This document shows, one piece after another, positions 3,905 to 4,357 of a stretch of 7,042 bases of DNA; the stretch's first letter is position 1; every line of letters begins with the position of its first letter. Below the pieces are notes generated by a model. It was given only the letters and a program-made list of their open reading frames with translations, did no database searches and was not told where the DNA came from. This DNA is from a virus (Duplodnaviria > Heunggongvirae > Uroviricota > Caudoviricetes). Both the position numbers and the translations under genes were made by a program. The stretch is from the IMG/VR virus record IMGVR_UViG_2636416140_000004, one strand, 5' to 3'.

Positions 3905-4053
3905 AATAGCGTTTTCTTATCGGTATCGGTAAGATTGCTGCGGGTGCTTGAGGCTGTCTGCCTCGGGCATGCCACTGTAAGGCAGACAGAGAAAAGCCCC
4001 AGTTAACATTACGCGTCCTGCAAGACGCTTAACATTAATCTGAGGCCCAATCT
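3905..4053 (+). promoter_or_regulatory. hok promoter region and hok mRNA 5' leader (tac/ucb-like elements)
   Basis: -10-like TAAGAT at 3930..3935 with a weak -35; leader from about 3941 (GCGGGTGCTTGAGG) resembles the plasmid R1 hok mRNA 5' end as recalled; perfect 10-bp hairpin 3954..3963 / 3980..3989 with 16-nt loop. Confidence 0.5.
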
Positions 4054-4062
4054 ATGTCTCAC
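3990..4062 (-). ncRNA. sok: Candidate Sok-like antisense RNA (type I antitoxin) overlapping the mok start
   Basis: On the minus strand, -35 TTGCCT (complement of 4092..4097) and -10 TAACCT (complement of 4069..4074) with a 17-bp spacer, at the position where sok promoters sit relative to mok/hok; transcript would be antisense to the mok SD and start (4042..4056). 3' end not resolved. Confidence 0.4.
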
Positions 4063-4266
4063 AAATGTAGGTTAGCCTCTTACGTGCCGAAAGGCAAGGA
4101 GAAGCAGGCTATGAAGCAGCAAAAGGCGATGTTAATCGCCCTGATCGTCATCTGTTTAACCGTCATAGTGACGGCACTGGTAACGAGGAAAGACCTCTGC
4201 GAGGTACGAATCCGAACCGGCCAGACGGAGGTCGCTGTCTTCACAGCTTACGAACCTGAGGAGTAA
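4054..4266 (+). CDS. mok: Mok-like reading frame (N-terminally extended Hok, 70 aa) that couples hok translation
   Basis: ATG at 4054 with GAGG 8 nt upstream; in frame with hok. The N-terminal extension MSHKCRLASYVPKGKEKQA resembles what I recall of MokC. Confidence 0.55.
   Translation: MSHKCRLASYVPKGKEKQAMKQQKAMLIALIVICLTVIVTALVTRKDLCEVRIRTGQTEVAVFTAYEPEE
4111..4266 (+). CDS. hok: Hok/Gef-family type I toxin, 51 aa (HokD/RelF-like sequence)
   Basis: MKQQKAMLIALIVICLTVIVTALVTRKDLCEVRIRTGQTEVAVFTAYEPEE: single TM helix followed by the conserved RKDLCE periplasmic motif; SD AAGGAG upstream of the ATG at 4111. Confidence 0.85.
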   Translation: MKQQKAMLIALIVICLTVIVTALVTRKDLCEVRIRTGQTEVAVFTAYEPEE

Positions 4267-4315
4267 GAGACCAAGCGGGGGAGAAATCCCTCGCCACCTC
4301 TCATGTGTCAGGCAT

Positions 4316-4330
4316 CCTCAACGCACCCGC
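4316..4330 (+). promoter_or_regulatory. fbi-like 3' element of hok mRNA, complementary to the 5' end
   Basis: CCTCAACGCACCCGC (4316..4330) pairs with GCGGGTGCTTGAGG (3941..3954) with one bulged C, as expected for the hok mRNA fold-back inhibition (tac-fbi) interaction. Confidence 0.5.
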
Positions 4331-4335
4331 ACTAA

Positions 4336-4357
4336 ACCCGCTTCGGCGGGTTTTTTG
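4336..4357 (+). terminator. Rho-independent terminator of the hok transcript
   Basis: Stem CCCGC (4337..4341) / GCGGG (4346..4350), loop TTCG, then TTTTTT (4351..4356). Confidence 0.85.

Follow-up and report, generated by a model that had tools for sequence, protein, structure and literature searches.

Genes and elements of the hok unit

The window, that is the whole stretch of 7,042 nucleotides that was analysed, carries a hok gene on the plus strand together with an overlapping upstream mok frame, a candidate antisense sok gene and a set of leader and terminator elements. The segment 3942-4357 (+) is read here as an intact and complete hok/mok/sok module of the hokW type, at a probability of about 0.9, and is predicted to function by the canonical hok/sok mechanism. 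The regulatory elements were defined as for plasmid R1 by Le Rhun et al. 2022 (PMC9841398). The features are, along the window:

3907-3935 (+): putative hok promoter, with -35 TAGCGT at 3907-3912, a 17-nt spacer and -10 TAAGAT at 3930-3935
3942-4357 (+): full-length hok mRNA, ~416 nt, running from the start of tac to the T-run of the terminator, its start placed by homology
3942-3953 (+): tac (translational activator element), GGGUGCUUGAGG, paired with 4316-4328 in the full-length fold
3994-4000 (+): ucb, or anti-SD, AAGCCCC; when the full-length RNA is folded, its positions 3996-4000 pair with 4042-4046 in the mok SD region
~4062-3992 (-): predicted sok antisense RNA gene, ~71 nt, ends placed by homology to the 933W sokW annotation
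4042-4045 (+): mok SD, GAGG, read from the sequence, 8 nt ahead of ATG 4054
4054-4266 (+): mok ORF of 70 aa that reads in the hok frame and ends at the hok stop, arranged as mokW/hokW in the 933W annotation
4069-4097 (-): predicted sok promoter, with -35 TTGCCT at 4097-4092, a 17-nt spacer and -10 TAACCT at 4074-4069
4075-4079 (+): dcb, GCCUC, to which the mok SD pairs when the RNA is in its open (target-hairpin) conformation, from the Rfam consensus structure
4098-4101 (+): hok SD, GGAG, 9 nt ahead of the hok AUG
4111-4266 (+): hok toxin ORF, 51 aa, MKQQKAMLIALIVICLTVIVTALVTRKDLCEVRIRTGQTEVAVFTAYEPEE
4275-4295 (+): 3' UTR hairpin, GCGGGGGAGAAAUCCCUCGCC, present in all folds
4316-4328 (+): fbi (fold-back inhibitory element), CCUCAACGCACCC, which in the MFE structure makes 12 pairs with tac, interrupted by one bulge
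4334-4359 (+): intrinsic terminator, an 8-bp stem at 4334-4353 with 5 G-C pairs, then the T-run TTTTTTGTT

An earlier sequence-only reading had proposed a complete hok/mok/sok module in prophage DNA that lacks relBE. This identification was right, and all the elements that it listed were found in place: a 51-aa Hok toxin (Pfam PF01848, 82.9 bits against a cut-off of 22), a hok SD of its own, an in-frame 70-aa mok extension from ATG 4054 to the stop common with hok, a structured 5' leader (Rfam RF01794, 118.1 bits, E = 3e-27), an antisense promoter at the mok start (minus-strand TTGCCT-17-TAACCT, the same sequence as in the 933W sokW promoter) and a strong terminator.

The product of 4111-4266 is a small Hok/Gef toxin of ~50 aa with an N-terminal transmembrane helix, and its match to PF01848 (HOK_GEF) covered the full 42-position profile. 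The protein is 100% identical to K-12 HokD, and 47 of its 51 residues are those of HokW of 933W. NCBIfam subfamily models gave 48.5 bits, under their cut-off of 73, so that Hok falls outside those specific subfamilies. K-12 HokD was used as a toxic positive control in a 2025 Hok survey preprint. The mok frame starts upstream of hok behind an SD that is invariant across 37 aligned hok loci (alignment columns 123-126), and translational coupling of mok and hok is predicted.

Codon 47 of Hok is TAC (4249-4251) and the next base is G (4252). UACG is the context of A-to-I editing by TadA. The surrounding motif TTACGAA is nearly invariant in the 37-locus alignment. A 2025 preprint describes that editing recodes Tyr to Cys in hokB, with a similar phenomenon in hokC, hokD and hokE, and that the recoding thereby adds a second cysteine, for a disulfide on which full toxicity depends.

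RNA folds, promoters and the antisense gene

A scan with Rfam covariance models, which the sequence-only reading had suggested as a check, came out in its favor. RF01794 matched 3942-4116 (+) over model positions 1-157 of 157, at twice the gathering score (118.1 against 59 bits), and was the sole family over threshold within the window. The family is named 'sok antitoxin (CssrC)', yet its consensus is the hok-sense leader from the tac 5' end (GGGUGCUUGAG) to the hok AUG; the sok gene lies antisense inside the match, and the model is in effect one of the hok mRNA leader. The Sok-encoding strand had no match in the Rfam scan, and a literature search under the Rfam alias 'CssrC' returned nothing relevant. 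Weak matches to isrK (30.6 bits), rsmX, STnc30 and others fell below their gathering scores and lay on terminator hairpins; they were dismissed.

Folding of the full-length hok RNA (416 nt) gave an MFE of -172.4 kcal/mol (z = -7.85 against 100 shuffles) with paired 5' and 3' ends. In this predicted structure tac and fbi form 12 pairs and ucb sequesters the mok SD, as in the closed, translationally inert form of hok mRNA described for R1 (PMC9841398). An R1-type locus folded likewise, with 5'-3' closure and z = -7.8. The fbi element is kept as CCTCAA(C/T)GCACCC in loci down to 70% identity. The 3' UTR hairpin at 4275-4295 is likely the protective 3' stem-loop of the processed mRNA, by analogy with the last stem-loop of the truncated R1 hok mRNA (PMC9841398).

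The partner of tac changed with the length of the folded RNA. In a 69-nt nascent fold, tac paired with 3994-4000 and thus formed the tac/ucb stem of the Rfam consensus. In the truncated and leader-only folds it formed a hairpin with 3961-3970, the counterpart, in these models, of the metastable hairpin in nascent R1 transcripts. The MFE folds of RNAs ending at 4300-4320 retained the ucb/SDmok pairing and gave no open tac/ucb conformation. The two pairings of the open form are both available, tac/ucb in 96.9% and SDmok/dcb in ~99% of the cells in the alignment described below. Since the truncated RNAs kept ucb/SDmok, the switch to the open form rests on these available pairings and on homology, not on prediction.

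The -10 hexamer of the putative hok promoter lies 6 nt ahead of a +1 that is placed by homology only. A TAnnnT hexamer was found at the same distance from GGGTGCTTGAGG in every compared hok locus, though the sequences further upstream are unrelated; its variants include TAGAAT, TATAAT, TACAAT and TAAGAT, among others. The -35 of the window is the weak TAGCGT, compared with TTTGCG or TTGGCG in other prophage types. A generic sigma-70 consensus scan of the window did not call this promoter. It is plausible and, because of the poor -35, probably weak. Between the DUF551 gene and hok, at 3741-3773, there is a palindromic G+C-rich hairpin with A-runs and T-runs on its flanks. It was scanned as a minus-strand terminator, and by direct reading it has TTTTT on the plus strand too. 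This hairpin would insulate hok from read-through out of the nin region.

The sok gene was placed by transfer of the 933W sokW annotation (2937-3007, minus strand, in the 933W locus) to 3992-4062 of the window, with an offset constant at 1055. In the predicted Sok fold the 5' tail is unpaired and is followed by a long hairpin and then a U-rich tail, CUUUUCUCU (-30.7 kcal/mol, z = -5.9). Over TGTAGGTTAGCCTCTTACGTGCCGAAAGGCAAGG the sok promoter region is base-for-base that of 933W. The generic sigma-70 scan did not call this promoter either, because its -10, TAACCT, agrees with the consensus at only three of six positions and the scan needs four of six per hexamer. Given this threshold and the identity of the sok promoter region to 933W, the misses were not counted against the promoters. 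In the Sp5 copy of the system, Takada et al. 2021 (PMC8621323) used the primers YO-421 and YO-422 for a promoter-less sokW mutant in which TAGGTTA, the -10 as written on the plus strand, was changed to CCGGCTC; this mutation abolished protection against HokW. The window can thus be read as encoding in cis an antisense Sok whose own promoter lies within the 5' region of mok, and transcription of this Sok is predicted.

The helices were followed through an alignment of 37 distinct hok loci from E. coli/Shigella prophages, E. albertii, E. ruysiae, Kluyvera, Pseudocitrobacter, Pantoea, Erwinia and an R1-type plasmid, with identities down to ~70%. Partners slid by 1-3 columns served as controls, in which 37-50% of cells were paired. 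For tac/fbi, 95.9% of cells were paired (40-47% in its slid controls), and the five SDmok/dcb pairs (4042-4046 with 4075-4079) were each kept in 36-37 of the 37 loci. Compensatory changes were seen in hairpin 1 and in the ucb-SD hairpin. There were few in tac/fbi, among them a U-A to C-G change in the Pantoea locus. Most key-helix pairs are invariant over the 37 loci, and the comparative support is therefore one of conservation more than of covariation. Photorhabdus hok loci, in which a regex search for the GGGTGCTTGAGG tac motif found none, were left out of the structural alignment. The window contains the sequence and structure elements of the module, which are conserved and can pair in either of the alternative ways.

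When 67 distinct prophage-type hok loci were compared in 10-nt bins along the whole mRNA, variability was highest at 4052-4061, with 0.79 bit per column as against at most 0.1 in most bins. This bin spans mok codons 1-3, the part of the mRNA that makes up the loop of the target hairpin and is complementary to the 5' tail of Sok. The S. flexneri chromosome CP182556.1 has three hok loci with three different versions of this segment (the mok starts of L012, L014 and L018 were also inspected).

Prophage setting, proposed mechanism and possible roles

The hok unit lies in the nin region of an IS-truncated lambdoid prophage, and the source is almost certainly a Shigella-type genome. The neighbors of the unit are a 221-aa ORF, DUF551 and, downstream, DUF1367, YbcO and a DUF1133/Q-like gene. 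The assignment to a Shigella-type genome is drawn from a near-identical unit in Shigella flexneri SFBU1023 (99.76% identity, one difference in 416 nt, at base 4274) and in several other Shigella-type chromosomes. The absence of relBE, which the sequence-only reading had noted, was confirmed by tblastn: K-12 RelB and RelE gave only noise with E > 1 against the window.

An IS600 copy occupies ~1322-2599 on the minus strand (OrfA 2221-2523, OrfB 1367-2185), and homology to intact prophages sets in directly after it, at 2588. The element forms the junction between the prophage, on one side, and a truncated LysR-type regulator gene (888-1370) and a hydrolase gene, on the other. The left arm of the prophage, with the integrase, immunity and replication genes, is wholly missing. 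What is left is a remnant, and its induction is very unlikely.

On the other side, an IS1 of 768 bp (4757-5524) is a simple insertion ~400 bp past the hok terminator, beyond an intervening ORF. This IS1 is 100% identical to another copy, in the locus L010, and is inserted between the small hypothetical ORF and the DUF1367 gene. Compared with an uninterrupted prophage (L008), its flanks overlap by ~10 bp, as expected for a target-site duplication. The intervening ORF, 4503-4754, was considered as K-12 Rem, which would imply synteny with Qin. On direct comparison the two were unrelated, despite the same position relative to hokD. The ORF had no Pfam or NCBIfam match. E. coli AVS0790 has a homologue whose annotation is that of a hypothetical protein of 70 aa; this length suggests that the true start is GTG 4542, behind GGAGG.

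The module is proposed to work in the following way. A weak constitutive promoter would give a stable hok mRNA of ~416 nt, in which the 5' tac would pair with the 3' fbi and ucb would sequester the mok SD. Because of this pairing and sequestration, the full-length mRNA would be neither translated nor bound by Sok. Slow 3' trimming would remove fbi, upon which tac would pair with ucb and the mok SD would shift into the SD/dcb target hairpin. A stronger antisense promoter would supply an unstable Sok RNA of ~71 nt. On the mok start region, Sok would block translation of mok, and hence the coupled translation of hok, and would direct cleavage by RNase III. When the supply of Sok stops, Hok would be made and inserted into the inner membrane, and the cell would be killed or arrested. 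Transcription of both strands, 3' processing and any biological role are what we infer from these elements. A literature search for expression data on the 3942-4357 locus in Shigella found none.

That the module stabilises the prophage remnant, as the sequence-only reading suggested, is possible, but the suggestion found no support here. According to earlier work, as related in a 2025 preprint, the native chromosomal hokA, hokB and hokC do not confer post-segregational killing. A more tentative and rather unlikely idea, prompted by the variable bin 4052-4061, is that co-resident prophage hok/sok copies have diversified the recognition tails of their Sok RNAs, each Sok controlling only its own hok. 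If true, lambdoid prophages and their remnants would carry mutually orthogonal addiction specificities, and the copy of a remnant could act alone.

The module could also be an intact and silent hitch-hiking relic, transcribed too weakly or over-buffered by Sok, and without a role. We consider this rather doubtful. In its favor, the window-type upstream region is unlike that of 933W and its -35 is weak next to TTTGCG or TTGGCG; in uninduced lysogens, moreover, deletion of hokW-sokW had no effect on growth (PMC8621323). However, all regulatory elements are intact in an IS-ridden Shigella-type genome and near-identical in several Shigella chromosomes, the position of the -10 hexamer is conserved in all compared loci, and the sok promoter region is that of 933W.

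A role in phage biology, be it defence of the abortive-infection type against superinfecting phages or, in intact relatives, assistance with lysis and release, is unlikely to be the explanation here. The aid to cell lysis and phage release is the sole role found experimentally for a close homologue: after RecA-dependent induction of Sp5, sokW RNA is gone, HokW is made and hokW-sokW lifts phage release ~two-fold (PMC8621323). In the window, such induction-linked release is very unlikely, because the left arm was lost to IS600 and IS1 was inserted 400 bp downstream. As for defence, R1 hok/sok on a high-copy plasmid is reported to lower the plating of T4. The 2025 survey preprint found hok genes ~four-fold enriched in prophages but no enrichment of hok near defence systems. 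Since the induction-linked role is so improbable here, the window copy could be a convenient test case for what hok/sok does in dead prophages, be it retention of the remnant or phage defence.

Inactivation by nearby IS elements, as in K-12 hokA, hokC and hokE, is highly improbable: both IS1 and IS600 are within the window, and a K-12-like hokC locus (L029) loses homology before fbi, but the unit is collinear from promoter to terminator with IS-free copies (98.8% identity to L002, 94.7% to L008), and IS600 ends ~1300 bp upstream and IS1 begins ~400 bp past the terminator, both outside the transcription unit. This collinearity led us to reject it. Pedersen and Gerdes reportedly found in 1999 that insertions of IS150 and IS186 near the 3' side inactivate K-12 hok loci, and the loss of homology in L029 agrees with this.

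Comparison with known hok systems

By sequence, the locus belongs to the lambdoid-prophage lineage of hokW/mokW/sokW and encodes the same toxin as K-12 hokD. A well-described close relative is hokW/mokW/sokW of the Stx2 phage 933W, with 92.6% nucleotide identity over 392 nt from tac to fbi; all three features are annotated in GenBank AF125520, and 79 phage records match. The window shares with 933W/Sakai prophage 5 the sok promoter, the mok frame in phase with hok, the extended form of the hairpin between ucb and the mok SD and the setting in a lambdoid prophage. The window and 933W differ in several respects. Before -8, the upstream promoter region of 933W is unrelated to that of the window. 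The mok codons 2-4, in the region of the Sok 5' tail, read SHK here and LNT in 933W, and the last residues of Hok are TAYEPEE here and VDYESEK in HokW. A hairpin terminator follows fbi here and in K-12 hokD, whereas 933W has none at that place (3262-3320 of its locus, L001, against 4330-4357). Window and 933W diverge directly after CCTCAACGCACCCGC. Finally, the 933W locus is near attR, while the present one precedes the Q-like gene in the nin region.

For the Sp5 copy, the function of the system has been established experimentally (PMC8621323). HokW is toxic and localises to the inner membrane, and sokW, expressed from its own promoter, neutralises it, partly via RNase III and Hfq. Both the hokW and the sokW RNA are visible on northern blots.

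K-12 hokD (relF), in the cryptic prophage Qin, has the same toxin in a different arrangement. Its Hok is 100% identical, and nucleotide identity is 98% across 259 nt that take in the hok SD and ORF, the 3' UTR, fbi and the terminator. It lacks tac, ucb, the mok start, dcb and the sok gene with its promoter; instead, relE abuts the hok SD. Homology to the window starts only at AGGAGAAGCAGGCTATG, and all sequence upstream of this point is relE. The contrast drawn in the sequence-only reading, that K-12 hokD lies behind relBE without regulatory elements of its own, is therefore correct. The window does not have the K-12 arrangement: the leader is present, and there is neither relB nor relE.

The implication that a complete module would be unusual did not hold. 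The leader 3942-4125, counted at a coverage of at least 80%, is present in 4286 of 5426 complete E. coli genomes, at a median of two places per genome, compared with 1177 genomes that have the K-12 relE-hokD junction. The 2025 survey preprint likewise found Hok in ~80% of Enterobacteriaceae genomes. Thus K-12 hokD is the derived, truncated form and the minority one, and the complete form is the rule in the prophages of E. coli and Shigella. In addition, 933W was already annotated with hokW/mokW/sokW and the Sp5 copy is an experimentally working type I toxin-antitoxin system (PMC8621323). The locus is real but ordinary, since some four fifths of complete E. coli genomes have the module and a copy of 93% identity works in experiments. 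Its novelty is nil, as this type of locus is known, annotated and experimentally characterised in that copy. Genome pipelines mark only a 'hokD' or 'Hok/Gef' CDS here, without mok or sok features; the correct label is a complete hok/mok/sok (hokW-type) module, and it has little importance beyond annotation.

The prototype, hok/sok (parB) of plasmid R1, has the same order of elements, the same alternative pairings and the same 5'-3' pairing in the full-length fold. Its sok promoter is placed alike, with TTGCGC-17-TATCCT in R1 and TTGCCT-17-TAACCT here. R1 Hok is distant, with 44% identity to HokW, itself identical to the window Hok at 47 of 51 residues (PMC8621323). Hairpin 1 is longer and the ucb-SD hairpin shorter in R1 than in the window. 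The R1 system is plasmid-borne, with proven post-segregational killing, whereas the present module is carried by a prophage.
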